From an uncultured Pseudomonadales bacterium (GTDB lineage Bacteria > Pseudomonadota > Gammaproteobacteria > Pseudomonadales > UBA7434): a stretch of DNA of 64,000 nt. This document shows, piece by piece, positions 16,101-51,144 of the stretch. The notes below the pieces were generated by a model. That model did no database searches, was not told where the DNA came from, and saw nothing but the letters and a program-made list of their open reading frames with translations. Location of the stretch: the NCBI GenBank assembly GCA_943788835.1, contig CALSRU010000005.1:213343-277342 (forward strand), written 5' to 3'. The position numbers were made by a program, and so were the translations under genes. Numbering within the stretch: position 1 is the stretch's first letter; each line of letters starts with the position of its first letter.

Positions 16101-17525
16101 TTGGCCCACGTTCGTTTATTTAAGCACTACTTGCCTTACCCCATTGTGGCATTGACTGTGATAGAGGCGGCTTTGCTCTATGCGTCCTTAGTTATCGGTC
16201 ACACGCTGCGCTTTCGCCTGTTTGGTGATGTCCCATGGGAAGCACCACTATTGCTAAACCCAATGTTGGTGCCGAGTGCGGCAGTTTACATGCTATTGAT
16301 GCTGCTGTGTACAATGGCTCTAGGAGTTTATAGTGCAGGGTTGCGCGGGGGTAATGGCCCCATGGCCATTCGCACGGTAGTAGCTTATTGCCTGCTCGGC
16401 ACGTCTTCTCTAACGGTGATTTATTATCTGTTCCCATCCCTATACATGGGGCGTGGGGTCTTATTTTACGCAATCATTACCGCGCTTTGCTTAGTGGTTC
16501 CCGTGCGCTGGCTCTTTCTGCGCTTGGTTGACGCCGAATCACTGCGTTCTAGGGTGCTTATATTTGGCGCTGGCGAAAATGCCCGCCGGCTAGCAGAAGA
16601 GTTGGGTGCGGGACATGCTGGCGTGGCAAAGGTGGTGGCGTTTGTGCAGAGCTCTGAATCTGAGCCGGTTTTTGTGACACGCGATTTGCGCTCTCGCACA
16701 GGCACTTTGTTAGAGATGGCGCAGAAGTTAGATATTAGTGAGATTGTTGTTGCGCTTGATGATCGTCGCGCGGGGCAGGGCAGTGCTTTTCCGCTCAATG
16801 AATTATTCGAGTGCAAGTTGCATGGCATTCGTGTGTCCGATGCTATTGGCTTGTGTGAGCGAGAGCTGGGTGTTGTTTCGCTGGCAGAAATCAGCCCTAG
16901 CTGGTTAGTGTTTAGCTCAGGGTTTACCAGTGGTGAATTTGGGCTAATGGTTAAGCGAGCTTGCGATATTATGGTGTCGCTCGTATTACTGCTGCTAACT
17001 TGGCCGCTGATGGCGCTGGCTATAGTGCTTATTTTTTGTGAATCGGGCCGACCTATTTTGTATCGGCAGCAGCGTACCGGCTTGGAAGGCAAGCCCTTCG
17101 AGATATTGAAGTTTCGCAGCATGGTCACTAATGCTGAAAAAGATGGGGCCGCTGTATGGGCTCAAAAAAATGACAGCCGTATTACGCGAGTGGGTGCATT
17201 TTTAAGGAATACGCGTATCGATGAGTTGCCGCAATTATGGAACGTATTGCGCGGTGATATGAGTATTGTTGGCCCACGCCCAGAGCGCCCTGAGTTTATT
17301 CAGGGTCTGGCTAATGAGCTACCCTATTACAATGAACGCCATCATGTTAAGCCCGGTCTGATGGGATGGGCACAACTCAACTATCCTTATGGAGCGTCGG
17401 TTGAAGACGCTGCGCAAAAGCTGCGATACGATCTTTACTATGTAAAAAATAAAAGTTTGATGCTCGATTTGATTATTATGGTTCAAACCGTGCAGGTTAT
17501 TTTATTAGGAATGGGAGTCCGATAG
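16101..17525 (+). CDS. EpsB-type polyprenyl-phosphate sugar transferase (priming glycosyltransferase, PEP-CTERM-locus type)
   Basis: 474 aa with a TTG start. The N-terminus VRLFKHYLP plus 4-5 TM helices is typical of the PEP-CTERM-associated EpsB_2 group. The C-terminal bacterial sugar-transferase domain has [37 protein letters not shown] and SLMLDL. Confidence 0.88.
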
Positions 17526-17526
17526 T

Positions 17527-18165
17527 ATGAATACTTATCTCACAGCATTGCGATGCAGTGCAGCGCGTATTTTTTTGGTAACACTATTTTTTGTAACCGG
17601 CTGCTCTTCGCAGCAAGGCATATCTGAATTACCTACGCAGGGTGTTTTGGAATTGCCCGAATACCGCATTGGTTCAGGCGATAGAATTAAGGTCGATGTT
17701 TGGAAAAACCCTGACTTATCCTCCATTGTCTTGGTACGCCCTGACGGGAAAATTTCGATGCCACTGATTGGTGACGTACTCGCTAGCCAAAAAACCACCG
17801 ACGAGTTGGCTACAGACCTTGAGGAAAAGTTAAAGGACTTTGTTCGCACGCCGCAAGTCGCTGTAATAATAGAAACACCAAGTAGTGCGGCATTTCAACT
17901 TCGCGTTAGAGTGACAGGTGCAGTAAATAGTCCTTTGTCTATTGCCTTTGAAGAGGGTATGACGGTGCTTGATTTGGTGTTGCAGGCAGGAGGTTTGTCG
18001 CCATTTGCGTCCGGTAACAAAGCCTTGTTGCACCGTAAAACGGCTGACGGTGAAATGGGTGCTTACCGAGTCCGGCTGCAGGATATCCTAACTAAAGGCA
18101 AATTAGAAACTAACTACCCACTAGCTCCGTCGGATGTGATTAGTGTACCTGAGCGTAGTTTTTAA
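17527..18165 (+). CDS. short lipoprotein polysaccharide export protein (OPX, PEP-CTERM-locus type)
   Basis: 212 aa with lipobox FFVTGC. The Poly_export motif is YRIGSGDRIKVDVW...VRPDGKISMPLIGDV. A SLBB-like segment follows. There is no long C-terminal region as in the 379-aa Wza. Confidence 0.85.
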   Translation: MNTYLTALRCSAARIFLVTLFFVTGCSSQQGISELPTQGVLELPEYRIGSGDRIKVDVWKNPDLSSIVLVRPDGKISMPLIGDVLASQKTTDELATDLEEKLKDFVRTPQVAVIIETPSSAAFQLRVRVTGAVNSPLSIAFEEGMTVLDLVLQAGGLSPFASGNKALLHRKTADGEMGAYRVRLQDILTKGKLETNYPLAPSDVISVPERSF

Positions 18166-18240
18166 AAGTCTTAATTTATGGTGCTCATTAGATTTTTGCG
18201 TTGGTTTTTTAATTCAATTTAATTTCACAGAGTAGTCGCT

Positions 18241-19750
18241 TTGGATTTTCTATTTATATTGCAGCTCGCAAGGGCAGGTTTCCGTGAGCTTTGGTTACAT
18301 CGCTACGCGGCGCTGTTTGGCGGTTTTACAATTGCTGTCGGTATTCTTATCTACGGCATGCTTTGGCAAGAAAAATACACAGTGTCTACATCGCTATATG
18401 CCGATCAGCAAAATATTATTGCACCGCTGTTGCAAGGCCAGGCGCAGGTCACGAAGGTAGAAGATCAATTGCAGGTTGTCAGAGATTTGATGCTCTCTAA
18501 TCGAATATTGGAGCAAATTGTTAAGGGCGAGATTATTTAAATGGTTTAGAGGACCCTGCCCAGCAGTCGTCGATTATTAACGGCTTGCGTGAACGAGTAG
18601 AGGTAGTCACTAGGTAAGAACTATATTGGCGTGTCTTTTGCTGATGTCAGCCCAGATCGAGCTTACAACCTAGTTACGCAACTGGTTGACCTCTTTATAA
18701 AAGAAAGCTCAGCCAATAAGCGCGGCCAAAGTAAGCAAGCTTTCTTGTTTATTGAAAAACAGGTGGCTTCTTATAAAGAACAGTTGCGCCAAGCCGAAGA
18801 TCGCCTAAAAGAATTTAATGCCTCTAACCTCGATGGCAGTGAGGGCAGAGTGCAAGGCAATATAGAAGTTCTACGTCAGAATATTGCTGACCTAGAACTA
18901 GATTTAGGGCAGGCAAGTGAGAGAGTTAAATCATTTGAATCCCAAGTTACACAAGAAGACCGATACTTGTCACGCAAAGCGAGGTCTGAAGAATTCCGCG
19001 AGCGAATTGCAGAGGCGGTTACACAGCTAGATAACTTAAAGCTGTCGTATACCAGCAGACACCCCGATGTCATTGCATTGGAAGAGCATATTAAAGCTTT
19101 GAGAGGCGCAGCTTCGGCGCCAGTGTCAGGGGCAGCGTCAGGTGATTCGACTGTTCGTGGTGTTGAGAATCCTGTTTTTGATGAGTTGCGTGGTGCCCTT
19201 GCCTCGGCAAAGGTTGAGCGCGACACACTAACTAGCCGTTTAAGCTCCATGCGTTCGCGCTTAGGCGAAGAGCGTGAGCGGGCATCGCGTATAGCCGAGC
19301 GAGATGCCGAGCTTGCTGAGCTGACGCGTGATTACTCAGTGACTAAAGGTCTTTATGAAGATTTATTAAACAGTAAAGAAAAGGCGCGCTCTCTCTATGA
19401 CGCTCGATATAGAAGGCCAAGGTGTTACCTACAAAATACAAGAGCCGGCTAAATATCCTTTGTTCGCAAGTGGTTTGCGGTTCATTCATTTTGCGCTGGC
19501 GGGGCTTGCAGCAGCTGTCGTAATACCCATTGGATTAATCCTTGCTTATATCTTTTTGGATCCTCGTATTCGTTTTAGTAACGCCATCGAAGAGCAATTT
19601 GATGTGCCATTGCTAGGCGAAATACCGCATTTGGTCTCTAACCCGATCAAACGGATGCGCAAGGTCGATGTAAGGCTATTCGTTTTTATGGGATTGGTTT
19701 GTGCGGCGCTCTATGCATCGACAGCCGCCTTTTATCTTATTTGGATGTAG
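18241..19750 (+). pseudogene. polysaccharide chain-length determinant (PCP, PEP-CTERM-locus type), broken by three frameshifts
   Basis: The track fragments are 18241-18540 (frame 1), 18631-19452 (frame 1) and 19397-19750 (frame 2). An unlisted frame-3 piece at 18525-18614 reads GRDYLNGLEDPAQQSSIINGLRERVEVVTR. Together they give a ~503-codon PCP-like protein with an N-terminal TM (FGGFTIAVGILIYGML), a long coiled-coil middle and C-terminal TM helices. The frame path is 1>3>1>2. Confidence 0.8.
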
Positions 19751-19754: not shown

Positions 19755-20504
19755 ATGGACTTTGATCAAAATCCAAAAGAGGGCTCGCGAAATATTGTTC
19801 GCTTAGATGAAGCAGAAGATCGCTTGTCACGCCAGCAGATTCGTGAAATGGCCGATATCTACCATCTTGCCGTTGAAGATTTAGATGAAAAGAAAATTAT
19901 TCATTCTAAAATGCGTGATAAAAAAATCCTCAATGTATTCCGAGAGATTCGTACCAAGCTGATGCAGAAAGTGGGTGGCAAGAATTTCACTTTGCTAGTC
20001 ACGTCTATTAGTCAGGGCGGCGGAGCAACGTTCGTGAGCACGAATTTAGCCGCCTCGTTTGCGCTGGATCATGGCAAAACGGCATTGATGGTTGATTGTA
20101 ATATCTATGCGCCATCTAACGATCAGCTTATTGATGGTGCCGATCTCGGTTTTTCAGATTATCTCCAAGACCCGTCGATTTCTATGGAAGAAATTATCTA
20201 TGCAACAGGTATTCCAAGGTTGCGGTTGGTGCCGGCAGGCAGTGCTACTGATTTAGGGCCGGAATACTATACCTCCTATCGGATGCAGCAGTTTGTTGAA
20301 GAGCTCCAAGGCCGTTATGCCGATCGCTACGTCGTGATTGATGCGCCTCCAATTGGAAGTACGGCCGATGCCCGTATTCTGGCAGAGTTATGCGATTTCG
20401 TGACTATCGTGGTGCCTTATGGCATGGTGACTAGCGAACAAGTAAAAACAGCTATTGAAAGCGTGCCTAGCGATAAGTTAGTGGGCTTGATTTTTAATAA
20501 CTGA
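19755..20504 (+). CDS. BY-kinase-like P-loop ATPase partner of the chain-length determinant, with a degenerate Walker A
   Basis: 249 aa from the ATG at 19755, 4 nt after the PCP stop. It has MinD/BY-kinase architecture: a Walker A position reading VTSISQGGGATF, Walker A' LMVDCN and Walker B YVVIDAPPIG. No C-terminal Tyr cluster is present. Confidence 0.75.
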   Translation: MDFDQNPKEGSRNIVRLDEAEDRLSRQQIREMADIYHLAVEDLDEKKIIHSKMRDKKILNVFREIRTKLMQKVGGKNFTLLVTSISQGGGATFVSTNLAASFALDHGKTALMVDCNIYAPSNDQLIDGADLGFSDYLQDPSISMEEIIYATGIPRLRLVPAGSATDLGPEYYTSYRMQQFVEELQGRYADRYVVIDAPPIGSTADARILAELCDFVTIVVPYGMVTSEQVKTAIESVPSDKLVGLIFNN

Positions 20505-22238: not shown

Positions 22239-23774
22239 ATGCATGCTAAGCCAATTATTTCTGACCGCCGGTCGAGTTTACTACTATCCGCTTTTCTGGC
22301 TGTAGGCATCTTGGCTTGGCAGTTTTTCCCAACAGTCTTCTCGTTACATTCAAGATGGGCTGTCTTAAACGAAGCCTATGGTCACGGCTACGTAGTTGTG
22401 GCACTTTGTGCCTATTGTTTTTGGCGTTATTTGACTCTCTGTCCACCCTCAGCAGTAGATAGCACGGCCTTGAAACCAAAATCTCAATTTCTTGGTATGT
22501 GCGTTTTCGTCTTGGGTTTACTGGGTTGGATATTCGCAGAGGCTAGTTTTACTCAATTGTTTGCACAGCTAGCATTGCCAGTTATGTTTTCCGGGTGGGT
22601 TATTGGTGTCCATGGTGTAGATTTGTTTCGTCGTGTCTGCTTAATCCCTTTGCTTATGTTCAGCTTTGCTCTTCCGATTTGGGACTTCCTGGTAGGCCCC
22701 CTTCGCGCAGTGACCACTGATGTGACTGCCTTCGTGCTCAGTACTTTGGGTATTACTTTTTACGTTAGCAATTTCCAGTTCTATTTTCCGTCGGGTATTG
22801 TTCGCGTTGCCGGCGGTTGCTCAGGTCTTAATTTTTTTACCGCAGCATTGCTTATCGGTTTTTGTTATTCTGAGTGGGTTCTTGACGGTAAAAAAAGAAT
22901 AGTGAGTGTATTTCTTGCCTGTCTATTTGCAGTAGTAGCGAACTGGCTTCGAGTTATTTCATTAATGTTGCTTGCCCATTACTCAGAGATGACACACCCA
23001 TTGATTTATAATCATGGATTCTATGGATGGGTTGTTTTTGCCGTAATGCTTCTTTTATATTTTTATATCATGCAAAATTTTTTTTGTGCTGACCATAGAT
23101 CTAATAATCCAAACCCTCCTGAGCCGAAAAACCTTCCGCATACGCTGGGTGCAGTGATACCCACTAGAGCAGAAATGTATTCAATGGCTATTTTTTTTCT
23201 GGTTTTAATGATTTTGGTGTGGGGCTTTCATACCCTTTCTGACAGTCAAAAAATTAAGACTATAGAGCTAAAAGTTCCCCAGTATTTTCAGCAATATGAT
23301 CTAAGCAGCACTGATTGGATGCCGCTGTATAGCGGTTATGATAGGGCGCAGCACTGGGTAGTGCGTGTGGAGGGCAATCCTCGCTTGACGGTATTAACCT
23401 ATCTTACGCAGCAGCAAACAAAGGAATTAGTTTATTTTAGTAATCGTCTTGGCGGCGAATATAAAGAAACCGCATTAACTGCTTTTTATAGTGATGGAGG
23501 GATTCCTTTAGGGCGATCAATTATAAATACAAAAGATGGCAAGCAGCTAATTTATTGGGCTTATCATGTTGGTGACCGGTATACCATCAACCCCATTGTG
23601 GCAAAGTTTTATCAGGTGCTTGCTGCCTTAGCAGGTAAGTCTAGCTCAGAGCTTATTGCGGTGAGCTACGACTGTAGCGAGGCATGCCGTTCGACAGTTG
23701 ATAGCCCGCAGGGATCGGCGAGAGCTCAGCAGGTATTTGAAATTATTAACTCACTTAAATGGCAGGTGAATTAA
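22239..23774 (+). CDS. xrtA: exosortase (XrtA-like) fused to an EpsI-family domain
   Basis: 511-aa polytopic membrane ORF. Exosortase signature segments are VRVAGGCSGLNFF (Cys), ANWLRVISLML (Arg) and HPLIYNHGFYGW (His). After a further TM helix, the C-terminal ~200 aa (…YSGYDRAQHWVV…LTYLTQQQTKELVYFSN…LIYWAYHVGDRYT…) resemble EpsI. Confidence 0.88.
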   Translation: MHAKPIISDRRSSLLLSAFLAVGILAWQFFPTVFSLHSRWAVLNEAYGHGYVVVALCAYCFWRYLTLCPPSAVDSTALKPKSQFLGMCVFVLGLLGWIFAEASFTQLFAQLALPVMFSGWVIGVHGVDLFRRVCLIPLLMFSFALPIWDFLVGPLRAVTTDVTAFVLSTLGITFYVSNFQFYFPSGIVRVAGGCSGLNFFTAALLIGFCYSEWVLDGKKRIVSVFLACLFAVVANWLRVISLMLLAHYSEMTHPLIYNHGFYGWVVFAVMLLLYFYIMQNFFCADHRSNNPNPPEPKNLPHTLGAVIPTRAEMYSMAIFFLVLMILVWGFHTLSDSQKIKTIELKVPQYFQQYDLSSTDWMPLYSGYDRAQHWVVRVEGNPRLTVLTYLTQQQTKELVYFSNRLGGEYKETALTAFYSDGGIPLGRSIINTKDGKQLIYWAYHVGDRYTINPIVAKFYQVLAALAGKSSSELIAVSYDCSEACRSTVDSPQGSARAQQVFEIINSLKWQVN

Positions 23775-23802
23775 CAATGGCCAAAGTAATATTGAGTTGA
23801 CT

Positions 23803-25053
23803 ATGCGGCAACCAATAAAATCCAAGCAGGACGCTAGCGAATTCGCTTTCTATGTGTTTATGTTTTATATGTTGGTGGTGTATTCCGGTCTTCCGGATTA
23901 TTTCCCCACGCTGGGTGCCATAAGACCAGGTCTGCTTTGCGTAAGTCTCTTGACTATTAACATGTTGTCATCAGGTTCTTTGAGTAAAGATATTACGGAA
24001 ACGGAAGTGTTAATGCTCTTCCTGATTATAGGCCAGTCTTTGCTGTCGTTTACGTATGCAAAAAATACAGGGGTAATGAGGCATCTATTTGAGGCAGAAA
24101 TACTGAACATTTTTGGTTTAACGCTAGGAGTAATGCTGGCCCTTCGTGCTGAATATCATTTGCGAGCGTTTTTAAAACTTTGGTTGTTTCTCGGTGTTCT
24201 TATATCCGCTCAGGTAATAAAAAACGGTGGAGTGGGGCCGCAGCGTCTGGGTGATGAGAACGACGTTACATTAGTAATCGTGCTCATGCTGCCCTTCTTT
24301 TTCCTGGGCGTTAATTTTTACAAAGGCTTTTATAAGTGGCTTTGTGTTACCGGCATTCTTCTATCTTTCGTTGCAATAGTTGCAGCTACATCAAGAGGTG
24401 GTTTTTTGGCTTTGGTGGGTATGTTGGTAATGCTTTGGTTTTTTTCAAGAAAAAAAATTGCATGGGTTCTTGCTGCGGGTTTGTTAGTGAGTTTGGCGGC
24501 CGCTTTTTTTATTCCACAACAATATAAAAACGATATGAGTACTATCAGCGACACGCAGGAATCTACAGCGGATGCGAGGTTATACTCTTGGATGCTTGGC
24601 TTTGAGATCTTTAAAGATAATTGGTTTTTAGGGGCAGGGACCGGTCAGTATGGTTGGGAGGTGTCGAAGTATCAGCGTGAGCGAGGTGATTTTGAAATTG
24701 ATGAGCAAGGTTTAAAAAAACGTAGAGACCTTAGCGGGCGAACATCTCATTCGTTGTATGTCGACTATATAAGCGAGAGAGGAGTGGTTGGCCTGATTTT
24801 TTTCAGTATCATGGCGGCGTCGATTTATCGACGATTAAAGTCAATGCGAGCACGGTGGTCGGATAGGGCTGGTGACCCTCAGAATGACCTCTTTGTCTAT
24901 TTCTCCGTAGCGGCTTCTTGCGGTATCGTCGGGAATTTGGTGGGATCTATTTTTGTCACCAGCTTTTATTTCCCAAGCTTGTGGCTGATGGTGGGCTGGG
25001 TAATCGCAACGCATCGAATCGTGCAACCCAACCGGATGGACATTGGTATATAA
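23803..25053 (+). CDS. O-antigen-ligase-like (Wzy_C) membrane protein, exosortase-associated type
   Basis: About 416 aa with ~10 TM helices. Wzy_C core segments are ATSRGGFLALVGMLVMLWF and HSLYVDYISERGVVGL. It lies immediately downstream of the exosortase. The ATG at 23803 is preferred over the TTG at 23797. Confidence 0.8.
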   Translation: MRQPIKSKQDASEFAFYVFMFYMLVVYSGLPDYFPTLGAIRPGLLCVSLLTINMLSSGSLSKDITETEVLMLFLIIGQSLLSFTYAKNTGVMRHLFEAEILNIFGLTLGVMLALRAEYHLRAFLKLWLFLGVLISAQVIKNGGVGPQRLGDENDVTLVIVLMLPFFFLGVNFYKGFYKWLCVTGILLSFVAIVAATSRGGFLALVGMLVMLWFFSRKKIAWVLAAGLLVSLAAAFFIPQQYKNDMSTISDTQESTADARLYSWMLGFEIFKDNWFLGAGTGQYGWEVSKYQRERGDFEIDEQGLKKRRDLSGRTSHSLYVDYISERGVVGLIFFSIMAASIYRRLKSMRARWSDRAGDPQNDLFVYFSVAASCGIVGNLVGSIFVTSFYFPSLWLMVGWVIATHRIVQPNRMDIGI

Positions 25054-26306: not shown

Positions 26307-26310
26307 TTTT

Positions 26311-27387: not shown

Positions 27388-27406
27388 ACGATTTAGGATT
27401 TAGGTT

Positions 27407-41077: not shown

Positions 41078-41103
41078 GCCTTACGTAGCCAACAGTGATT
41101 GCG

Positions 41104-42237
41104 TTAACGTTGAGAGGGCGACCATACGGTCATCCGTGTGCCGGTTATGTATTTTACCGTGGCATGGGCAATAGAGATATTCACCTGCACAAAGAAAAAT
41201 ATAATTTTGGCCAGCCCGTTGTTGCGCAGGGTGTCAATTTTCCATGCAAAAAAGGCAATGCCATAAAAAACCAATTGCCCCAAGCATAGTAAGGCATAAA
41301 ACCAATGTTGTGCGCACAATGCTATTGAGAGCAGGGCGGTACTTAATAAAAACCAAGGCACTAGCCAGCGCATAACTTTGTGGCTCCATACCTGAAAAGC
41401 AAACAATCCGTGTTTGAACACGTTGAGTGAGTCGAGGTGACGCATAAGTGCGGTGATACCGCGCAGCACCGTTCTCACTTTGCGGTTATATTCTTTTTGA
41501 GGGTCTTTCAAATCTTTATAAAACCCCAGCACGCGGTCGCTGCTGATAGCGATTTTGCCGTGTGCGTTGCATTGCAAAGCGGTGTTGAAGTCACTCGGTG
41601 AGCGTGTGTCCCACTGGTCGCAAATTTCACGGCGGGCGGCGAAAAAAGACCCGCTAAGCCCAATTAGCCCGGCCCGCTCTGACTCAAGTTGGCGCAGCCA
41701 CATTTCATACTTAACATACAAACCTTCACCGGCAATATCGCCTGAGTCTGCAATGAAGCGGTCTTCGCTAGATACCGCACCAACGTGTGCGTCGCTAAAC
41801 AGCGCAACGAGGTTTTGGAGTGCGTCGGTTTCCATTTGTGTGGCCACATCAGAAAAAACGATGAGTTCGTTATGGCTGGCTTTAATAGCGCAAAGCTGAG
41901 CATGTTCTTTGCCGTCGTGTTCGGTGACGTCTACCAGCTGCACGCTGCGATGGGCATAGCTCTCGACAATGGCATTGGTGGCATCGGTAGAGCCGTCGGA
42001 GGCCACAATAATAGTGAGTTTGTCGCGAGGGTAATCCAGCAGTAAGGCATTCTCAATTTTTTCTTGGATACGGCTCGCTTCATTGTGCGCCGTGATAATC
42101 AAATCGACCGTGGGAACAAAGTCGTGACTTGCGGTGGTGGCTAGCAAATGCCGTTTGGGTACAAAAGCGAGTATGAGCGGGTAAAGAGCGTAGCTGTAAA
42201 TTGCACCGATGATGCAAATAATGAGTAAATATTCCAT
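41104..42237 (-). CDS. glycosyltransferase family 2, membrane-anchored
   Basis: 377 aa with an N-terminal TM helix. The GT-A motifs are VDLIITAHNEASRI and IVASDGSTDAT. Three to four TM helices lie at the C-terminus. Confidence 0.8.
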   Translation of the reverse strand: MEYLLIICIIGAIYSYALYPLILAFVPKRHLLATTASHDFVPTVDLIITAHNEASRIQEKIENALLLDYPRDKLTIIVASDGSTDATNAIVESYAHRSVQLVDVTEHDGKEHAQLCAIKASHNELIVFSDVATQMETDALQNLVALFSDAHVGAVSSEDRFIADSGDIAGEGLYVKYEMWLRQLESERAGLIGLSGSFFAARREICDQWDTRSPSDFNTALQCNAHGKIAISSDRVLGFYKDLKDPQKEYNRKVRTVLRGITALMRHLDSLNVFKHGLFAFQVWSHKVMRWLVPWFLLSTALLSIALCAQHWFYALLCLGQLVFYGIAFFAWKIDTLRNNGLAKIIFFFVQVNISIAHATVKYITGTRMTVWSPSQR

Positions 42238-42431
42238 GGGGTGATGAAGATCCTGTCGGTGCTTTTTGAGTCCGATCTAAAATTAGTCTGCTTAGTAGCA
42301 TAGTAGCTTAGGCGCAAGGCTCGCTCCATAAGCGCAGTGTAGGTTAGTATATTAATCAGTGTAGATGATGCGAGTCCTCTCTATAATGATTACGGGATTT
42401 TCCCCATTTTTAACTGATAGGGTTATCACTT

Positions 42432-43595
42432 TTGCCTGCAGGACAGTCCAACGTATCGAGCCCCCAGCCATCCCGGAGAGCGACGGCACAAGCACCATTG
42501 AGCGTGTTGCAAGTTGCATCGGGTGATTTGTGGGCGGGCGCAGAGGTACAGTTGTTTAATCTGTGTCAGCAGTTAAACCTGAGTGAAGATGTCCAATTAC
42601 ATGTGGTATTGCTCAATGAGGGCCAGCTGGCCAGCCGATTGCGCGATATTCAGGTGGCGGTGACTGTTTTTGACGAGGGCCGTTTATCTTTTGCTCAAAT
42701 TTATAGTCGACTGGTTGCTCATTGCACACAACTGCGGCCCGATATTCTGCATTCTCACCGACAAAAAGAAAATGTATTGGCGGCACTGTGCGGGTTGCGC
42801 ACCCAAACGCCATCGGTTCGAACGGCGCATGGTGCCTCTGAATTCAACTTTGGCCGATTTTCCCCCCGTAATTTTGTAGCGCTGCTAGATCGATGGGTGG
42901 GGCGTTTCATGCAGCGTCGCGTGGTGGCCGTGAGCGATGATTTGGCGCAAAAGCTGGCCCAGTATTATCCGCTTAAGCATATTGAGGTAATACGCAATGG
43001 CATCGCTTTGAGTGAGCCCGTTGCCGATGCTCCCATCAGTTTGCCAGCTGGGCACATTCATATTGGCATTGTGGGCCGTTTGGTGCCTGTTAAGCGTATC
43101 GACCTGTTTCTCGACACGGCGGCTGCATTGCTGTCTGACAAACCAGAGAAAAACTTTCGGTTTTGGATTATTGGCGATGGTCCATTGCGCGCGGCCAGCG
43201 AAGCAAAGGCGCAATCGTTAGGTATTGCTGAGCATGTTGAGTTTGTAGGTCATGTGCCATCGGCAATGCCGTATTTGCAGTCGCTCGATTTACTTGTGAT
43301 GTGTTCTGACCATGAAGGCACGCCCATGACGCTGCTGGAGGCTATGCGCTGCGAATTACCTATTGTTGCTCACAATGTGGGAGGGTTAAAAGAATTACTC
43401 AATGCTGGCGATTGTGGCTATCTGGTGGGCGAGCAATCCCCAGTGTTATATGCGCAAGCAATCTGCACGGTTATTGAATCTAAAGACTTACAGCAGCGGT
43501 ATGTGAGTAAAGCGTTGCAGCGTTTAGCCGGTGGTTATGCTGCTGAGAAAAATAGCGCCGCCTATTTGAACCTTTACAAATCAGTCTGTCGATAG
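42432..43595 (+). CDS. glycosyltransferase family 4
   Basis: 387 aa from a TTG start (start uncertain). The N-terminal part is VLQVASGDLWAGAEV. The GT4 motif is SDHEGTPMTLLEAMRCELPIVAHNVGGLKELL. Confidence 0.8.
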   Translation: MPAGQSNVSSPQPSRRATAQAPLSVLQVASGDLWAGAEVQLFNLCQQLNLSEDVQLHVVLLNEGQLASRLRDIQVAVTVFDEGRLSFAQIYSRLVAHCTQLRPDILHSHRQKENVLAALCGLRTQTPSVRTAHGASEFNFGRFSPRNFVALLDRWVGRFMQRRVVAVSDDLAQKLAQYYPLKHIEVIRNGIALSEPVADAPISLPAGHIHIGIVGRLVPVKRIDLFLDTAAALLSDKPEKNFRFWIIGDGPLRAASEAKAQSLGIAEHVEFVGHVPSAMPYLQSLDLLVMCSDHEGTPMTLLEAMRCELPIVAHNVGGLKELLNAGDCGYLVGEQSPVLYAQAICTVIESKDLQQRYVSKALQRLAGGYAAEKNSAAYLNLYKSVCR

Positions 43596-43797: not shown

Positions 43798-44640
43798 TTA
43801 GAGCAAAGATTTTGCACGCAACACATTGGCAACGGTCGTAAATTCAAAATCAGCTAGCAGTTGTTCTAAGCGCTGCTCACATACCTCTAAATTATTGTAG
43901 TGCCGGAACTTCGATAGCCCAGTGGCCGCTAATTTGGGTTGCTCGGGGTCTATTTCCCATGGATGCAAATAAAACACAAAGGGCTGCTTTTGTGCTGTGT
44001 TCACGCGCTGCAAACCCCAGCGACTAAACCAGTAAGGAAACAACCTAAAATACCCGCCACCGGCAATAGGCAGTTTGTAGCCGGCAAGTTTTAATGCGGT
44101 GATAGGGAACTCAGTGATCTTGTGCCCGGCTGGGGTGGTAAGCGTATGTGGCACTTCCACCGCATCAGGAATGCCGTAGCGGTCGTGCTTCACCGGAAAA
44201 ATACTTGAGTCATACGTAAAGCCGGCTTCAGCAATCGTATCGAGCGCCCATAGCGATTTTTTGGTAATGGAATAACTGGCCGCTCGATAGCCGTTAACGG
44301 CTACGCCACTAATATCTTCTAACAGTTTTTTGCTACGAATCGTTTCTTCTCTAAATACTTCGGGCGTTTGGTTGTAAATTAATTGATGGCTATAGCCGTG
44401 GCTGGCAAGCTCATGCCCAGCTGCCACAATTTTGTTAACTACCTGCGGGCATTTTTCGGCAATCCAACCCAATACAAAAAAGGTGCCTTTAATTGAATGT
44501 TCATCAAAGCGCTGCAATATTTTATCGGTATTGCGTTCAACGCGCAGCTCAAAATCATCCCAGCTTTTAGTGGGCGCCCAATTGGCTAGTGCCGCAACTT
44601 GAAAGTAGTCTTCGACATCAATGGTGATGGCATTTTGCAT
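43798..44640 (-). CDS. polysaccharide deacetylase, PEP-CTERM-locus subfamily
   Basis: 280 aa. The N-terminus MQNAITIDVEDYFQV and the segments GHELASHGYSH and YLHPWE match the deacetylase subfamily that accompanies exosortase-A loci. It lies directly downstream of prsT. Confidence 0.85.
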   Translation of the reverse strand: MQNAITIDVEDYFQVAALANWAPTKSWDDFELRVERNTDKILQRFDEHSIKGTFFVLGWIAEKCPQVVNKIVAAGHELASHGYSHQLIYNQTPEVFREETIRSKKLLEDISGVAVNGYRAASYSITKKSLWALDTIAEAGFTYDSSIFPVKHDRYGIPDAVEVPHTLTTPAGHKITEFPITALKLAGYKLPIAGGGYFRLFPYWFSRWGLQRVNTAQKQPFVFYLHPWEIDPEQPKLAATGLSKFRHYNNLEVCEQRLEQLLADFEFTTVANVLRAKSLL

Positions 44641-44745: not shown

Positions 44746-47463
44746 TTAAGCGCCCTTTTTTGCCTCGCTCAAATGTGCCGCTATCTCGGCGTTGCTGCTA
44801 TCGAGCTGAACGGCTCGTTCTAGCATTTTAATAGCCTGCTCGCGCTCTCCATTTTGATAAAGAATCCAACCATAGGTATCAGCCACGGCTGCCGTGTCAG
44901 GCGCCAACTGGTAAGCCTTAGCCGCTATCGATGCCGCACGCGCATCGCCTACCTGCTGGTAAGCCCAAGCCAGATTGTTCAGGTTGGTCACGTTATCGGG
45001 GGTATTTTCACGAATTCTTTCTAGCAAGGGAATGGCTTGGTTAAAATCGCCGGCAACTAACAGGTCACGTGAGCGCAAAGCCGCTGCAGCACGGCTAGAA
45101 GGGTTGGCCGTTAGCCACTGCTGTAAAAATGTTGCGGCTTTGGGTGCATTGGTTTTGTTTAGCAATGCATAAAGCCTCTTACTGAGTAATTCGTTGGGTC
45201 GAATTTCCCAGACTTGTGAGTAGGCATCAATGGCGTTGTCGATTTCTGCTTTGGCGGTGAAAAGGTCGCCGGCCAGCTGCAGGCTAAGGGGCTCATTCAG
45301 CTTGCTGATTTGTGCAACGAGCTTTTCAGCTTCCGAATACTGCTCATTAATTATTTCAATTTCAGTCAGCATTGATAAAAGTCGCAGCGCCTTAGGCCTG
45401 AGACGCAGAGCGGCGAATATCTTATCTTTGGCCTGCGCATATTGCGCATTATCAAAGCTACGATTGGCGCTGGCGTAATACACATTTAACTGGGTACGCT
45501 CCAGTAGGGCTGGATCGATAATTTGGTCATTTAATTGGTCAAGATAGTTTTCTGCTTTATCGATATCACCTACGGATGAAAAATAGGCGGCTAGCACCGC
45601 AATGCCGGCCCCCGTGTTTTCGTCATTGGCCAGTGTTTCAATACGGTTGACAGCAGCGGCGACTTGTTCAGTGTTCTGCGCACCTCGCAACATACCTTCA
45701 TACGCTCTAGTTTGCTGAGGCTCTATTGACGCAGCCTGACTATAGGCGTTGAGTACGCCGGCATAATCCACTTGTTTGAGCTGCGCAATAGCGGCGAGTT
45801 GCAAGGCTATCCGATAATTTTGCGGGTCGCTCTTAAGCGCAGCTTCATAGAAGTCTGTGGCTTTCACGTAATCTTGCTGTGTGGCATAAAACCCCCCAGC
45901 CAGTTGCAATGATACTGCATCTCGCTGGCGTTTCCTGAGTTGTTCGGTGATCAGTTGTTCGGCTTCGGCAATTTCACCCACGCGTATCAGTTGCTCCGCG
46001 AGGCGAGTTAAAAGTGCGGGGTCGCTGTTATCGTGCACATACGCTGCACGCAAATACGCTAAGGCCTTGATCGGCTCTGGGGGGCTTTTCTCATCGTAAT
46101 AGCTGGCCAGCGTTGAGTAGGCTGGAATGATGGAAGGTTCAAGCTCAATAGCGCGCTCTAAGGCATTAATGCCTTTGCTTGTATCACCCTTCATTAGCGC
46201 AGATTGACCATAAATAGCTAACAACTTAGCGTCATTGTTAGTGTCAGGAAAGTCCTCAAGCATATCCATAACTTGCTGTGGCCGGTTTGAGCGCAAGTTC
46301 GACAATGCCGCTAGGCGAGTGATTTCGGGGTGGACTAGTTCAGGGTCAATAGTTTCATTGAGATAATCTGATGCAGTATCAAAATCACCCTGCTGGTATT
46401 GGATAATCGCCAGCAGCATCCCAGCATTTTCAAAATTGGGAAACTCTTCTAAGAGCTGACTTAACACTTCACTTGCCTCTTCCAATTCACCCAACTGATA
46501 AGCTTTTAGGGCTTCACGATATTGTTCTTGGGCCACTTCGAAGCCTGGGAAGGCCTCAGCCAGTATCTGTGTGTAAATTAAGGCCTCAGCCGATCGGCCC
46601 TGCTTAACTAAAACTTCTGCAAGTGCGCTGAGGATGGTGGCCTTTTCAGGGGTGATGGTGTCACTGTTGGTCACTTTGATGAGCGCATCGGACAAGTGAT
46701 CTTCTGCTGTAGAAAATTCCAGCCGGGCAATTGCGATTTTTGCTTGTAGCAGGCCAATATCAATATTATTAGAATCGAGTTCATCGGCTTTTAGCAACAA
46801 ACTTTCAGCTGTTTCAAGCTCATTGGCAAGAATTGCGGTATCGGCCAGTCCAAGCAGCGCTTGTTGATTGGTTGCGTCTTGATTCGATAAGATTTGATAA
46901 ATTTCTCGAGCTTGATCAACTTCCTTCAAACCAATGTGCGCGCGTGCTTTTAATAGTTTTGCTTGAACGGGCTGTGCGTCACTAAAGCTAGAATTAGTGT
47001 CCAGTTCGGTCATAGCCGTCGCAAATTTGCCGCGACCTAACAGTGCCTCCAGAAGTATGACGGTATACTTATCGTTATTGGTTTGCTCAGGCGCCTGATC
47101 TAACACCGCCAAAGCGCTTTTGTACTGGCCTAAATCGACGAGAATTTTGGCCATCAAAATAAAACCTTTTGCTTGCTCAGGCGCTTTTTGGATGACATTT
47201 CTTGCTTCAATGTTTGCGGCGCGATATTGCCCCGATTTTAAATAGGAGTTGGCTTGCTTTACATGAATATCGACTAGCTCAGCGCGGCGTTCATTGGAGG
47301 GCTCGCATGCCACTAAAAAAATTGCACTTAAACAAAGCAGGCTCCAACGCTGAATTGGTCTATTTACCTTGAAGCGCCAAGCGATAAGAAAAAAGTCCGA
47401 AACTCGTATGATAAGGCGACCGCAGATTGCATTAGGTTTTTCAAGAGCGTTAGGGCGGAACAT
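44746..47463 (-). CDS. prsT: PEP-CTERM-system TPR-repeat lipoprotein
   Basis: About 900 aa of TPR repeats throughout. The lipobox is LSAIFLVAC. It sits next to prsR/prsK. The start is uncertain: the track ORF starts at 47508, I give Met16 at 47463, and the signal peptide begins even later. Confidence 0.8.
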   Translation of the reverse strand: MFRPNALEKPNAICGRLIIRVSDFFLIAWRFKVNRPIQRWSLLCLSAIFLVACEPSNERRAELVDIHVKQANSYLKSGQYRAANIEARNVIQKAPEQAKGFILMAKILVDLGQYKSALAVLDQAPEQTNNDKYTVILLEALLGRGKFATAMTELDTNSSFSDAQPVQAKLLKARAHIGLKEVDQAREIYQILSNQDATNQQALLGLADTAILANELETAESLLLKADELDSNNIDIGLLQAKIAIARLEFSTAEDHLSDALIKVTNSDTITPEKATILSALAEVLVKQGRSAEALIYTQILAEAFPGFEVAQEQYREALKAYQLGELEEASEVLSQLLEEFPNFENAGMLLAIIQYQQGDFDTASDYLNETIDPELVHPEITRLAALSNLRSNRPQQVMDMLEDFPDTNNDAKLLAIYGQSALMKGDTSKGINALERAIELEPSIIPAYSTLASYYDEKSPPEPIKALAYLRAAYVHDNSDPALLTRLAEQLIRVGEIAEAEQLITEQLRKRQRDAVSLQLAGGFYATQQDYVKATDFYEAALKSDPQNYRIALQLAAIAQLKQVDYAGVLNAYSQAASIEPQQTRAYEGMLRGAQNTEQVAAAVNRIETLANDENTGAGIAVLAAYFSSVGDIDKAENYLDQLNDQIIDPALLERTQLNVYYASANRSFDNAQYAQAKDKIFAALRLRPKALRLLSMLTEIEIINEQYSEAEKLVAQISKLNEPLSLQLAGDLFTAKAEIDNAIDAYSQVWEIRPNELLSKRLYALLNKTNAPKAATFLQQWLTANPSSRAAAALRSRDLLVAGDFNQAIPLLERIRENTPDNVTNLNNLAWAYQQVGDARAASIAAKAYQLAPDTAAVADTYGWILYQNGEREQAIKMLERAVQLDSSNAEIAAHLSEAKKGA

Positions 47464-47530
47464 ATGTTCATCTCTTATTTGTCTGATTAAATAGGGTTTA
47501 CTTAACACGGTTTATTTGGTGGTTCCGTTT

Positions 47531-48904
47531 TTAATCGTTAGATAGATCATACTTATTCATTAAATCGTATAGCGTTGGGCGAGTGACTCCTAGCAGCTTG
47601 GCGCAAGCCGACATGTTTCCGTCAGCAATAGCCAGTGCAGTTTTAATGGCGCCCTTTTCGGCGTTTTGTCTGACGGTACGCAAATTAATAGATAATTCAT
47701 CATCTTCAACTAAACCTAAGTCCAGCGCATCTATCTTTTTCCCTTCAGCCATAATGACCGCGCGTTTTATTTTGTTTTCAAGCTCGCGAATATTCCCTGG
47801 CCATTCATAGGACTCTATGGCGGTAGCAGCTGCTGGCGTAAAGTCAGTAATTTTTTTATTATGTTCTCGAGAAAATCTTTCGAGCATAAAGCGAGCCAGT
47901 AATATTTTATCGCCTTGGCGCTCACGCAGTGGCGGGATATCGACAATGATTTCGCTAATGCGATAAAATAAATCTTCTCTAAAAGTGTTGTCTTTCACCA
48001 TGGCTTGCAAATCTTTATTAGTGGCGCACACCACTCGTACATCTACCGGTATTTCTTTGCGACCGCCCACGCGCTCGATAACGCGCTCTTGCAAAAAGCG
48101 CAGCAGTTTCGATTGAGCGGGCAAGGGCATGTCGCCAATTTCATCAAGAAATAGTGTGCCGCCTTCGGCTGTTTCAATCTTACCTAACGTTTGTTTGTTG
48201 GCGCCCGTAAAGGCACCTTTTTCGTAGCCAAAAAGCTCGCTTTCAATTAACGTTTCGGGTACTGCTGCGCAGTTGATGGCTACAAATAAATTATCTTTGT
48301 ATTCGCTCAAGTTATGAATGGCTCGGGCAAATACTTCCTTGCCAGTGCCACTTTCACCCAGTAGCAGTGTGGTGACGTTGGTGGGTGCAATTTTTTCGAT
48401 CGAGCGGCACAGCTTGACCATCATGGGGTTACTGGCAACGATACCTTCAAGTGGAGATTTGCCTTCTTCTTGTTGTTTGCGCAGTTCGTGCTCAAGCCGA
48501 GCCATTTGAAATGCGCGTTGTACAATGAGGTCTAGCACCTGAGTGTTAACAGGTTTTTGATAAAAATCGTAGGCACCCATGCTAACCGCACGTAAGGCAT
48601 TGTCGAAATCCGCATGTCCGGTTACTACAACTACTTTAACGCTTGGGTCTATAGCTAGGCTTTCTTGCAATGTTGCAAAACCTTCTTCCACGCCTTCTTC
48701 ATCTGGGGGTAGGCCTAAATCTTGTAAAACTACCGCGGGTTGTTCGCGGCGCAATGCGGCCAGCGCATCGGCTCGATTTGAAGCAACCACTACATTGTAT
48801 TCTTCATAGTGCCAGCGCAACTGGCTTTGCAGGCCAACATCATCCTCGACAATCAGTAGTGTTTGTTTCTCATCGCCCACTTGGTCTAAAAATTTATCGT
48901 TCAT
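47531..48904 (-). CDS. prsR: sigma54-dependent response regulator (PEP-CTERM-box regulator type)
   Basis: 457 aa. The REC domain has LLIVEDD and VLQDLGLP. The AAA+ sigma54-interaction domain has GESGTGKE, GAFTGA and LDEIGDM. The C-terminal Fis-type HTH is LLGVTRPTLYDLMNKY. Confidence 0.88.
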   Translation of the reverse strand: MNDKFLDQVGDEKQTLLIVEDDVGLQSQLRWHYEEYNVVVASNRADALAALRREQPAVVLQDLGLPPDEEGVEEGFATLQESLAIDPSVKVVVVTGHADFDNALRAVSMGAYDFYQKPVNTQVLDLIVQRAFQMARLEHELRKQQEEGKSPLEGIVASNPMMVKLCRSIEKIAPTNVTTLLLGESGTGKEVFARAIHNLSEYKDNLFVAINCAAVPETLIESELFGYEKGAFTGANKQTLGKIETAEGGTLFLDEIGDMPLPAQSKLLRFLQERVIERVGGRKEIPVDVRVVCATNKDLQAMVKDNTFREDLFYRISEIIVDIPPLRERQGDKILLARFMLERFSREHNKKITDFTPAAATAIESYEWPGNIRELENKIKRAVIMAEGKKIDALDLGLVEDDELSINLRTVRQNAEKGAIKTALAIADGNMSACAKLLGVTRPTLYDLMNKYDLSND

Positions 48905-48993
48905 AGTTGTCTGTCTGTTGGCCTGTTGTTGCGTGTCAATGGGGTTAATGGCGTGTCAGGTTATGGTCATATCATCACAGCATTATTTTGATC

Positions 48994-49020
48994 AGTGCTT
49001 TTAGTGCTTTTAATGCTTTC
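48994..49020. repeat. three tandem 9-mers in the prsK-prsR spacer
   Basis: AGTGCTTTT AGTGCTTTT AATGCTTTC, read directly from the sequence. It lies between the prsK stop (49069) and the prsR start (48904). Confidence 0.9.
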
Positions 49021-49068
49021 AGTAGTTGATGGTGCGCTGCAAATAATCCAGATACTGCTTTAGCCAGT

Positions 49069-51144
49069 TTACGATTCAGCATAGGCTATTGGAAGCTTAA
49101 TAGAGACACTGGTGCCAATATTAACCTCGCTGGTAACCAAAATGGCACCGCCCATGGCCTGTATGAATTCTCGAACTTGGTAGGCACCAATACCCATGCC
49201 CATACTGGACTTGGTTGATTCGAAGGGCTTAAACAGTCGGTTGGTTAAAAATTCTTCATCCATCCCGCTACCGTTGTCTTCCACCTCTATTTTTATGAAT
49301 TTGTCTTCATGCCGCACGTTGATATCAATGAAGCCATTATTAGCTGTGGCATCCTGAGAATTGCGAATGATATGCATTAAAATCATGACTAGCTGGTCTT
49401 GATCGGCCACTACAAATCCATCATCAGACTCGCTGCGCAAAGTGGGCAGGGGCTGGCGGTCCGAGCTTTTACGAATAGCTTCAAGCAATAGCGATTTGAT
49501 GGATACTGAGCGATGCGCTGGCTGATGTGTATTGCGTTGCAAGCGTTTTAATAATTGACTCATGCGGTTGACCGAGTTTTCAATAGTACGTATTGCATCT
49601 TCAACAAACGCGGGGTTTTCTTTGTGTTTTTTTGCGTTCTCAACTACCAAAGCTTGTTGTGCAATAAGGTTTTTTAAATCGTGCATGATAAATGCGGTGA
49701 GTTTATTGTAGGTATCAAATTGTTTTGATTCCGCCAATTGCTCAGCCGATTGCTGTCGCACAATGTAACCGGCCAGTTGTTTTCCGGCGCTTTTTATAAC
49801 GTCGATATCTTCCCAAATTAGAGGCTCGTTTTGTTCTTTTTTGGTCAGAAGAAAAAAACCAACCAGCTTTTGACCGATCATCAATGGAGCAATAATCCAG
49901 ATGTGGGGTATAGCATTAATGTCATCCGGAATTTTTTTAAGATGACGATCGTGATCTTTTTTTCCTGAACTCGTTAGTGCATATATCCAATCTTCTTTTT
50001 CTAACGGCTCAATAAAAGCATCGCTAGCTGTGAATTTTTTGTTCGTCACGCTATCGATATTCCAATTGCTTACCAAATCATATTCACCACGAGAGTTTTT
50101 GAGCCACATGGCGCCGCCGTGTGCATTGAATACATTACCGACCGATTCTAAGCCAAGTCGGAAAAATTCACTGTCGTTAGATATGCTGGATAATGTTTGG
50201 ATTAAGTTAAGCCAGACACTGCGATAATCATACTTATGTCGAAAAAAATGTTTATTGACAGACACGCGGATGTTGTCGCGGACTTGGTTGGACATGATGA
50301 GCGAGTAAATTGTGGCAAGTCCTAGTCCTATCAGTCCAATTTGAGCGGCTGTGCCCCAGCGTACCTCAGCCTGGTTAATGAAGAGTCCAACAATAATGAA
50401 AAAGGTGACTAAAACAATAATCGGCAGTGCAACTGAACCAAATATAACGACCTTGCGTGATAAAAATATGGCTTGAGCCGGAGGGTGTCTGATACTGCCT
50501 GCTAAAAAAAGTAGGGCAATGGTTACATCGATAAAGCTATGAAAGTAAGTCAAGAGATGCAGCTCAGTGACCATGGTTAATATGCTGGGGAGATACAAGG
50601 TGTGCACAGCAAGAAACATCAAAGAGCCAATCAGCAGTAATCGACATTCATGCTGAAATTGTTTGTGGCGCAACCGCAAAGCATAAACATTGAGCGCGGC
50701 AACAAGTATGAGTGGTGTGTAGGCACTGTAGCGCACTACTTGCGGGTCGATATTGAATTGGTTGGTGATGCTGGCTTGGCTGCCGGCCAGTAGTCCAAAA
50801 GCTGCACCAGCCAAAATACCTATAGCCCCAAGACGCAGCCAGCCTGATGCTGGGCGCTGTCTACCTTGCGCAACGATCTTCAACAAAGCCGCTACCCAAA
50901 GTGAGTTGCTGAGAAAGAACATCACGCCATAAAAAGATTGAGATATCACTTTCAATACTGCAGCAGCGGTAGCTATTTGCATGAGCAAGGCTGAAAAACA
51001 CAGCAGCTGCAGCCCTGCATTGGTGGGTACGGGTGATTTTTTGTTGCGCAAAATCGCGATGCTAGCAATAAGTAAAATGCTCGCAGCTAGATGACTGGCA
51101 AAATCAATGGCGAAAAACGGGTTGGTTGGCATGGGCGCGTTCAT
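49069..51144 (-). CDS. prsK: PEP-CTERM-system sensor histidine kinase
   Basis: 691 aa with about 10 N-terminal TM helices and a GAF-like middle. The HisKA H-box is FIMHDLKNL. The HATPase motifs are DNGSGM and GMGIGAYQV. It lies adjacent to prsR. Confidence 0.85.
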   Translation of the reverse strand: MNAPMPTNPFFAIDFASHLAASILLIASIAILRNKKSPVPTNAGLQLLCFSALLMQIATAAAVLKVISQSFYGVMFFLSNSLWVAALLKIVAQGRQRPASGWLRLGAIGILAGAAFGLLAGSQASITNQFNIDPQVVRYSAYTPLILVAALNVYALRLRHKQFQHECRLLLIGSLMFLAVHTLYLPSILTMVTELHLLTYFHSFIDVTIALLFLAGSIRHPPAQAIFLSRKVVIFGSVALPIIVLVTFFIIVGLFINQAEVRWGTAAQIGLIGLGLATIYSLIMSNQVRDNIRVSVNKHFFRHKYDYRSVWLNLIQTLSSISNDSEFFRLGLESVGNVFNAHGGAMWLKNSRGEYDLVSNWNIDSVTNKKFTASDAFIEPLEKEDWIYALTSSGKKDHDRHLKKIPDDINAIPHIWIIAPLMIGQKLVGFFLLTKKEQNEPLIWEDIDVIKSAGKQLAGYIVRQQSAEQLAESKQFDTYNKLTAFIMHDLKNLIAQQALVVENAKKHKENPAFVEDAIRTIENSVNRMSQLLKRLQRNTHQPAHRSVSIKSLLLEAIRKSSDRQPLPTLRSESDDGFVVADQDQLVMILMHIIRNSQDATANNGFIDINVRHEDKFIKIEVEDNGSGMDEEFLTNRLFKPFESTKSSMGMGIGAYQVREFIQAMGGAILVTSEVNIGTSVSIKLPIAYAES

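Follow-up and report, generated by a model that had tools for sequence, protein, structure and literature searches.

Gene content of the locus

The 64,000-nt window analysed here (contig CALSRU010000005.1 of an uncultured Pseudomonadales bacterium, positions 213,343 to 277,342) belongs to the 2.76-Mb genome, assembled in 17 contigs, of a marine gammaproteobacterium. Between pgi on one side and a DUF1631 gene and ispB on the other, it carries a gene set (positions 16101-51144) that is very probably a Wzx/Wzy-dependent exopolysaccharide (EPS) locus of the XrtA (exosortase A)/PEP-CTERM type. The genes of the window were identified by listing open reading frames (ORFs) and by scanning them with NCBIfam and Pfam profiles against the curated cut-offs (Table 1).

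Table 1. Features of the EPS locus and of its left flank, with profile scores in bits (vs: curated cut-off). OPX, outer-membrane polysaccharide export protein; PCP, polysaccharide co-polymerase; BY-kinase, bacterial tyrosine kinase; GT, glycosyltransferase; TM, transmembrane; AF2, AlphaFold2.
Feature	Coordinates	Strand	Evidence
Candidate outer-membrane beta-barrel partner of the short OPX, 457 aa	6497..7870	-	AF2, Foldseek, co-occurrence
Precursor genes manC, galU, manB, pgi	10592..16016	+, +, +, -	TIGR01479 686; TIGR01099 378; phosphomannomutase 675; pgi 652
EpsB_2 priming polyprenyl-phosphate glycosylphosphotransferase	16101..17525	+	TIGR03013 509.5 vs 393
Short OPX lipoprotein, 212 aa, D1D2/Class-3 type	17527..18165	+	TIGR03027 197.6 vs 180; EpsY-like 82.8
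Chain-length determinant (PCP), three indels	18241..19750	+	TIGR03007 in pieces, 170.5 + 48.9 vs 279
BY-kinase-like ATPase, no Walker-A lysine, no C-terminal Tyr cluster	19755..20504	+	TIGR03018 186.7 vs 230.65
FemAB-family XrtA-associated protein, N-terminal extension of ~175 aa	20555..22078	-	TIGR03019 317 vs 260, residues 178-507
Exosortase-EpsI fusion, 511 aa, divergent XrtA-like clade	22239..23774	+	PF09721 158; PF11984 35.1 vs 26.1, residues 320-475
Wzy_C/O-antigen-ligase-like membrane protein (polymerase or ligase)	23797..25053	+	PF04932 76.7; TIGR03097 98.6, below 188
Cassette part 1: GT4-like, two Acyl_transf_3, Wzx, deacetylase, GT25, hexapeptide acetyltransferase, GT4	25089..34005	.	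Pfam, NCBIfam
Wzx flippase	28849..30309		
PaaK/F390-synthetase-like adenylating enzyme (CoA-ligase-like), one frameshift near 34780	34173..35580	+	
Secreted right-handed beta-helix protein	35594..37081	-	Signal peptide; weak Pel9A-like and PelN matches
GT4 (stp2-like), one frameshift near 38025	37762..38878	+	C piece, TIGR03088 positions 127-373; N piece in other frame
Cassette part 2: deacetylase (+), DegT aminotransferase (-), GT2 (-), GT4 stp2-like (+)	38883..43595		
XrtA-system polysaccharide deacetylase, begins MQNAITIDVEDYFQV	43798..44640	-	TIGR03006 412.9 vs 276
PrsT TPR lipoprotein, lipobox LVAC	44746..47508	-	TIGR02917 336.4 vs 312
PrsR sigma-54-dependent response regulator, GAFTGA at residue 230	47531..48904	-	TIGR02915 690.5 vs 503
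PrsK membrane histidine kinase, ~9 N-terminal hydrophobic/TM segments	49069..51144	-	TIGR02916 443 vs 300, full length

The XrtA/PEP-CTERM exopolysaccharide system was defined by Haft et al. in 2006 (PMC1569441), and the model set applied here comprises TIGR03013, 03027, 03007, 03018, 03019, 03006, 03109 and 02914-02917. Seven XrtA-system models exceed their NCBIfam cut-offs in the window, namely those for EpsB_2, the short export lipoprotein, FemAB, the deacetylase, PrsT, PrsR and PrsK. All parts of a Wzx/Wzy-dependent pathway are present as well (priming phosphoglycosyltransferase, Wzx, Wzy-type polymerase, PCP and OPX), the PCP being frame-broken as assembled, and the G+C content drops from ~0.48 to 0.39-0.44 across ~20-41 kb of the window. 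A first-pass annotation made from the DNA letters had proposed this same gene set; every element that it listed was found where it had been placed, with the exosortase, PrsK, PrsR and PrsT models matching the ORFs in question, and its gene list holds nearly item for item, except that frameshifts in three genes went unmentioned. We deal with a known system, confirmed at the annotation level and otherwise ordinary, that has a number of lineage-specific traits: the exosortase stays below threshold, neither an ATPase nor a TIGR03016 gene belongs to the locus, the kinase-like protein is without the Walker-A lysine and the barrel is encoded at a distance.

Several results weigh against the assignment. 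Three proteins miss the XrtA-specific cut-offs: the exosortase (166.2 vs 208 bits on TIGR03109), the kinase-like protein (187 vs 231) and the ligase-like protein (99 vs 188). Neither a TIGR03015 ATPase (cut-off 324.5) nor a TIGR03016 outer-membrane protein (cut-off 90.85) is encoded in the locus, and no protein exceeds either cut-off genome-wide. Matches to the sigma-54 consensus across the window stay at chance level (44 vs 47 expected), and the enrichment of sigma-54-like sites upstream of PEP-CTERM genes with VPEP-type signals is weak. The fold match of the beta-barrel considered below as export partner is generic and not specific to AlgE/EpsX; five frame-breaks fall into three window genes (three in the chain-length determinant, one each in the PaaK-like and a GT4 gene); and the presence of a second exosortase in the genome makes the assignment of enzymes to substrates a matter of inference.

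The exosortase and the PEP-CTERM proteins

The exosortase domain keeps the Cys, Arg and His motifs of the family (GGCSGLNFF, ANWLRV and HPLIYNHG) and scores above the cut-offs of the generic exosortase models (TIGR02602, 130.4 vs 105.55 bits; TIGR04178, 45.8 vs 23). Outside its own cluster (86% identity), no sequence is more than 39% identical to it: an HMMER scan of 1.84 billion representatives returned 393 full-length homologues at E < 1e-30, all of them ≤39% identical. This full scan was needed, a related-locus search having found no exosortase relatives and a word-based protein search five. We scanned ten proteins, namely seven homologues and the syntenic enzymes of three fetched congeners (G015, G003 and G013), and each of them had XrtA as its best-scoring specific model. 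The seven homologues reached 176-222 bits on the XrtA model and thereby straddle the cut-off of 208, and the enzyme in the same slot of G013 is a true XrtA (290 bits), those of G015 and G003 scoring 156 and 168. Because XrtA always is the top specific model, the homologues lie on both sides of the cut-off and G013 has a true XrtA in this slot, the window enzyme is, judged from its sequence, placed in a divergent XrtA-like clade, its gene context being of the XrtA type; its score falls short of the cut-off for formal membership. The earlier designation as exosortase A hence stands with regard to best-model rank, accessory genes and synteny with the true XrtA of a congener, but not with regard to the curated cut-off.

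The same data may be read differently, namely that the enzyme forms a class distinct from XrtA with a signal and an acceptor of its own, in which case the accessory genes and PrsKRT would be shared scaffolding and no proof of XrtA identity. The window exosortase, the G015 and G003 enzymes and most of the nearest homologues do fall below the XrtA cut-off (156-196 bits), the low identity beyond the 86% cluster fits such a class, and the gene moves within a variable cassette (see below). We nevertheless consider this improbable, given the constant top rank of XrtA among the ten proteins, nearest homologues that exceed the cut-off (210-222 bits), the bona fide enzyme of G013 and the classic VPEP signals in the genome; furthermore, with every other curated class it stays far below the cut-off, the next specific model being XrtW with 152 vs 425 bits.

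As the first-pass annotation had supposed, PEP-CTERM substrates exist in this genome. There are 19 matches over the TIGR02595 cut-off, most of them at the C-termini of ORFs of ~200-280 aa that mostly start with a signal-peptide-like sequence. None of these genes lies within the window; all are encoded elsewhere in the genome. The signals form two populations, one of 8-9 members with the classic VPEP-G...RRK pattern and one of ~20 with VPVPAAAWLFGSAL...RRK, a VPLPA-CTERM-like signal of the VPxPA type. The second exosortase is XrtD-like (VPLPA-CTERM type) and is located on contig C8 (2037-3622), where the assembly breaks it into two parts, one of 372 aa (377 bits) and an EpsI part of 130 aa, its counterparts in congeners being open frames of ~525 aa; it adjoins a WecA-like transferase, a PrsT-like TPR protein (258 bits) and wecB. 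The VPEP signals are presumably handled by the XrtA-like enzyme and the VPLPA-like signals by XrtD. Within the genus, an exosortase occurs in 17 of 21 genomes and PrsK in 14 of 21; ten genomes, that of the window included, have two exosortase matches, the second match in the incomplete genome G014 being a sub-cut-off fragment.

Genus architecture and the exchanged middle

The window and the three congeners have common ends, with export genes on one side, PrsT, PrsR and PrsK on the other and a variable middle in between. The left end reads moeA, barrel outer-membrane protein, fabB, fabA, (manC), galU, (manB), pgi, EpsB2, OPX, chain-length determinant, kinase-like gene and exosortase, G003 having no adjacent counterpart of EpsB2; the right end reads (FemAB, deacetylase), PrsT, PrsR, PrsK, DUF1631 and ispB. 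The precursor genes manC, galU, manB and pgi, which the first-pass annotation had rightly attached to the left end, are syntenic in the congeners and also in a sister population represented by metagenomic contigs. Flanking proteins are 44-89% identical, with the exception of the barrel (23-31%) and PrsT (28-40%); for the exosortase, the values are 25-39%.

The sister population matches the window at ~90% DNA identity from 6072 to 20507, where homology ends. Beyond this point, sister contigs that share one EpsB_2 sequence continue into at least two other cassettes. Cassette A encodes a Cupin_8 protein, an Acetyltransf_6 protein, FemAB, an exosortase of 432-448 aa and deacetylases. Cassette B (contigs L167/L168, 14400-21425) starts directly after the kinase-like gene with two hydrolase-like genes, an Rce1/CPBP-like protease and a polyketide synthase/non-ribosomal peptide synthetase (PKS/NRPS) of >3300 aa, and no exosortase was found within the first ~7 kb fetched. 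Among strains whose EpsB_2 is identical and whose kinase-like proteins agree to 99%, the exosortase is only 31-33% identical to that of the window, or none is found within the ~7 kb fetched. The cassette type of the window recurs in another metagenome, with 93% identity for FemAB, 86% for the exosortase and 85% for the ligase-like protein.

Since the congeners share the ends and the sister contigs swap the middle, the separation of the regulators from the export genes is the norm for the genus, and the middle behaves like a serotype cassette, exosortase included. The strain-specific nature of the middle had been anticipated correctly; the split layout, with regulators ~25 kb from the export genes, had been described correctly too, but what was taken as unusual is no peculiarity of this strain. 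A recently inserted island is ruled out, the site and both ends being conserved across the genus.

A hypervariable middle between conserved ends, the low G+C content and the Wzx/Wzy/PCP/OPX set are features of serotype loci, and one might regard the whole as an ordinary capsule or O-antigen-like Wzx/Wzy locus, with the exosortase and Prs genes as mere neighbours that have no functional tie to it. We deem this most unlikely: the linked genes for exosortase, FemAB, deacetylase, EpsB_2 and PrsKRT correspond to the XrtA gene set as defined, their family-specific models lie over cut-off, and the same linkage is found in the congeners and in distant taxa (PMC1569441). The resemblance to O-antigen and capsule loci, which also extends to different cassettes in strains with identical flanking proteins, ends where the swapped unit of the window carries an exosortase and FemAB in addition.

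Staying with an XrtA-type locus, one may speculate that the exosortase is no fixed housekeeping sorter but itself part of a horizontally swapped glycan cassette, each exosortase, along with its EpsI domain and its FemAB partner, being suited to the polysaccharide of its own cassette. This would be explained most simply by covalent attachment of PEP-CTERM proteins to the strain-specific glycan, an idea that we offer with little confidence. To our knowledge, neither the acceptor nor the biochemical role of exosortases has been established. With its conserved ends, its hypervariable, exosortase-bearing centre and abundant metagenomic sister strains, the genus amounts to a natural experiment, in which glycan genes that vary together with exosortase, EpsI domain and FemAB might help to identify the exosortase acceptor.

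Polymer export and chain-length control

The OPX lipoprotein has the lipobox FFVTGC and aligns with TIGR03027 from end to end; it consists of the periplasmic D1/D2 domains only and has no outer-membrane-spanning helix. A 95%-identical orthologue likewise contains only Poly_export and SLBB domains. Short periplasmic OPX proteins of this D1D2/Class-3 type require a beta-barrel partner (PMC9601211, PMC9603273, PMC12819527). The sole barrel candidate, ORF 6497-7870, lies 8 kb outside the locus, as the first-pass annotation had it. This ORF has no Pfam domain, and the only TIGR03016 matches of the genome (17-20 bits) all fall within it. A first AF2 model from 6 sequences was unusable (pLDDT 33); adding the three congeners rescued it, and the model from 9 sequences (pLDDT 75.9, pTM 0.71) shows a signal helix and ~20 strands. 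Its Foldseek matches all are large outer-membrane barrels (TM 0.4-0.54). The ORF, which evolves fast, is found at the same site in the three congeners, and it is present in all 14 PrsK-positive genomes vs two of the seven PrsK-negative ones (Fisher p = 0.001, uncorrected for phylogeny). Because a short OPX needs a barrel, the model is that of a barrel and the ORF co-occurs with PrsK, ORF 6497-7870 appears a reasonable candidate for the partner of the 212-aa OPX, and the locus would thereby offer a candidate partner for a short OPX in an XrtA system.

Next to the chain-length determinant, the BY-kinase-like protein has a P-loop that reads SQGGGAT and stops where the TIGR03018 model stops. Members of this family of XrtA-associated tyrosine autokinases usually have a Tyr-rich tail. 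The Walker-A lysine and the tyrosine tail are missing in five genomes (the window's, G013, G015, G003 and G035), whereas a Cognaticolwellia homologue retains GK[ST] and a Y-rich tail. At the same time, the protein is 99% identical to that of the sister population and its dN/dS of 0.004 is, together with that of galU, the lowest of the region. Since lysine and tail are missing lineage-wide and yet dN/dS is this low, we read the protein, from its sequence, as a conserved and probably non-catalytic partner, i.e. a pseudo-enzyme and no broken gene: degenerate, yet very strongly constrained.

The FemAB protein is extended at its N-terminus, where residues 1-176 give a weak match to Seryl_tRNA_N, the N-terminal arm of seryl-tRNA synthetase (PF02403, E = 4.3e-4, 20.9 bits, below the cut-off of 28.2). 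The 507-aa form with the extension is kept in contig L174 at 93% identity and the extension is absent from the 372-aa FemAB of other cassettes.

The first-pass annotation had recognised no EpsD-like AAA ATPase in the window, and a tblastn search of the window likewise remained without a match at E ≤ 10. Three sub-threshold TIGR03015 paralogues (287, 287 and 233 bits) are encoded elsewhere in the genome, in the contexts of type II secretion (pseudopilin genes), of a second EPS locus on contig C3 and of pilus/secretion-ATPase genes. By gene order and N-terminal sequences only, we read the ATPase in the type II secretion context as ExeA-like and that among the pilus/secretion-ATPase genes as MshM-like/MSHA-like. 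The second EPS locus (C3:77227-96907, NCBIfam scan) comprises an OPX, an intact 590-aa chain-length determinant, a kinase-like protein with the P-loop GSGRT, the EpsD-like ATPase (287 vs 324.5 bits), Wzy and glycosyltransferases, all XrtA-type models remaining sub-threshold. A search for an end overlap that would join this locus to the XrtD locus on C8 across a contig gap found none. A TviB-like dehydrogenase gene at C3:83227-84504 looks split.

Frame-breaks

The indels in the chain-length determinant are -1 nt at ~18527, -2 nt at ~18604 and +1 (an extra C) at 19389, and all three are unique to the window among nine aligned sequences, the eight others being from the sister population. The gene is intact (503-519 aa) in the three congeners and in four sister contigs. 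Read in the ancestral frame, it shows a dN/dS of 0.043, its intact neighbours 0.004-0.10. Elsewhere, splits affect 3 of 90 conserved genes (~3%) of the genome, and the housekeeping gene proA (C8:9084-10359) is frameshifted ~65 codons before its end at a site without a long homopolymer, which suggests assembly errors genome-wide. In four sister contigs, whose 'contig_N' names may denote long-read assemblies, the chain-length determinant is broken at other sites; the neighbours are intact and the exosortases are also broken.

These frameshifts could be real, the locus then being a decaying, non-functional relic from which EPS is either not made or made without length control. To this we assign a substantial chance, if one short of even. 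It would account for five breaks in ~33 kb of locus coding DNA vs 3 in 115 kb of conserved genes elsewhere (p = 0.017), for three indels in one gene that only this genome has among the nine aligned, for the absence of any break within a long homopolymer and for splits in other polysaccharide genes (the XrtD-like exosortase and the TviB-like dehydrogenase). Decay would be expected to leave traces of relaxed selection, however, which are not seen in the chain-length determinant despite its three indels. As constraint is not relaxed, housekeeping genes such as proA are split as well and the 'contig_N' sister contigs break the same gene elsewhere with neighbours intact, we regard an error of the consensus next to a strain-variable region as no less probable than genuine decay and lean to the former. 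We would therefore caution that frame-breaks beside strain-variable regions may be consensus artefacts.

Regulation

Of eight VPEP genes, four are preceded by a sigma-54-like -24/-12 site with a score of 8 or more out of 11, vs a background of 16% (p = 0.027), an example being TGGCACTAGTCTTGCT at -121. No common activator motif was detected upstream of the PEP-CTERM genes by k-mer counting. The VPEP-gene sites agree weakly with the sigma-54 site described by Haft and colleagues (PMC1569441) and with the RpoN-dependent PEP-CTERM gene pepA of Aquincola (PMC9850573).

Right of PrsK follow genes for a DUF1631 protein, a small fn3-like protein, IspB, an AsnC regulator and LeuA; profile scans revealed no polysaccharide or exosortase-system genes among these five.

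Proposed workflow and relation to known systems

From family knowledge, we infer the following biochemical steps. ManC, GalU, ManB and Pgi would provide nucleotide sugars, EpsB_2 would prime undecaprenyl phosphate, and the glycosyltransferases and tailoring enzymes of the cassette would build a strain-specific repeat unit that is flipped by Wzx and polymerised or ligated by the Wzy_C-like protein. Chain length would be set by the chain-length determinant together with its catalytically degenerate BY-kinase-like partner, and the short periplasmic OPX lipoprotein would pass the polymer to a separate outer-membrane beta-barrel, for which ORF 6497-7870 is the best candidate. The exosortase-EpsI protein would cleave the VPEP-type C-terminal anchors of ~8-9 secreted proteins and pass these on, presumably into the polysaccharide matrix, the whole being controlled by the sigma-54-dependent PrsK/PrsR pair and the PrsT lipoprotein.

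With the XrtA system as defined (PMC1569441), the locus has in common EpsB_2, the export lipoprotein, chain-length determinant, kinase-like ATPase, FemAB, deacetylase, the exosortase with its EpsI domain, stp2-like GT4s, PrsK/PrsR/PrsT and several PEP-CTERM proteins encoded elsewhere in the genome. Apart from the lineage-specific traits named above and the missing tyrosine tail of the kinase-like protein, it differs in that FemAB is extended and displaced and that regulators and export genes stand at opposite ends of a swapped cassette.

The statement of the first-pass annotation that this system has hardly been tested by experiment is outdated: in Aquincola, floc formation is lost in prsT and epsB2 mutants (complemented) and in a prsK insertion mutant (uncomplemented) (PMC9850573). 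The floc genes of Aquincola tertiaricarbonis RN12 and Zoogloea resiniphila share with the window the epsB2, prsK, prsR and prsT families, and PEP-CTERM proteins there are sigma-54 dependent (PMC9850573), although both are Betaproteobacteria, unlike the host of the window. In the RN12 cluster, epsB2 immediately precedes prsK and the PEP-CTERM gene pepA immediately precedes prsT (PMC9850573), whereas the window has no PEP-CTERM gene and EpsB_2 lies 32 kb from PrsK. The combination of a periplasmic-only 212-aa OPX with a putative plug-less barrel, conserved nearby and found together with the system, resembles the EpsY/EpsX translocon of Myxococcus and the VpsN/VpsM translocon of Vibrio (PMC9601211, PMC9603273, PMC12819527), except that the barrel gene of the window is located 8 kb away behind fabA/fabB and the precursor genes; moreover, AlgE/EpsX-like barrels are 18-stranded, whereas the window model has ~20 strands.

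Further genes of the middle and the right flank

Cassette part 1 has a G+C content of 0.39-0.43, and no counterpart was found in the sister contigs. In total, the middle encodes six glycosyltransferases apart from the priming enzyme, about seven having been counted in the first-pass annotation, further two Acyl_transf_3 proteins and two deacetylases beyond the XrtA-system deacetylase. Single tailoring genes encode the hexapeptide acetyltransferase, the DegT aminotransferase and the PaaK-like enzyme, whose two pieces cover positions 5-125 (N piece) and ~161-343 (C piece) in profiles of the same families. The secreted beta-helix protein may, by its sequence, possibly be a glycan lyase or epimerase, and could act as a lyase or depolymerase on the glycan of its own locus.

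Between PrsK and ispB, the minus strand at 51258-54190 encodes the DUF1631 (PacR-like) protein (537 bits) and the fn3-like protein of 172 aa; the former has the same position in all three fetched congeners, the latter counterparts in G003 and G013.

A Cellvibrio contig of a metagenome-assembled genome shows the compact order PrsK, PrsR, exosortase, DegT aminotransferase and GT2, the GT2 being 56% identical to that at 41104-42237 of the window. As the aminotransferase-GT2 pair is next to the Prs genes there, it travels with them in another family as well.

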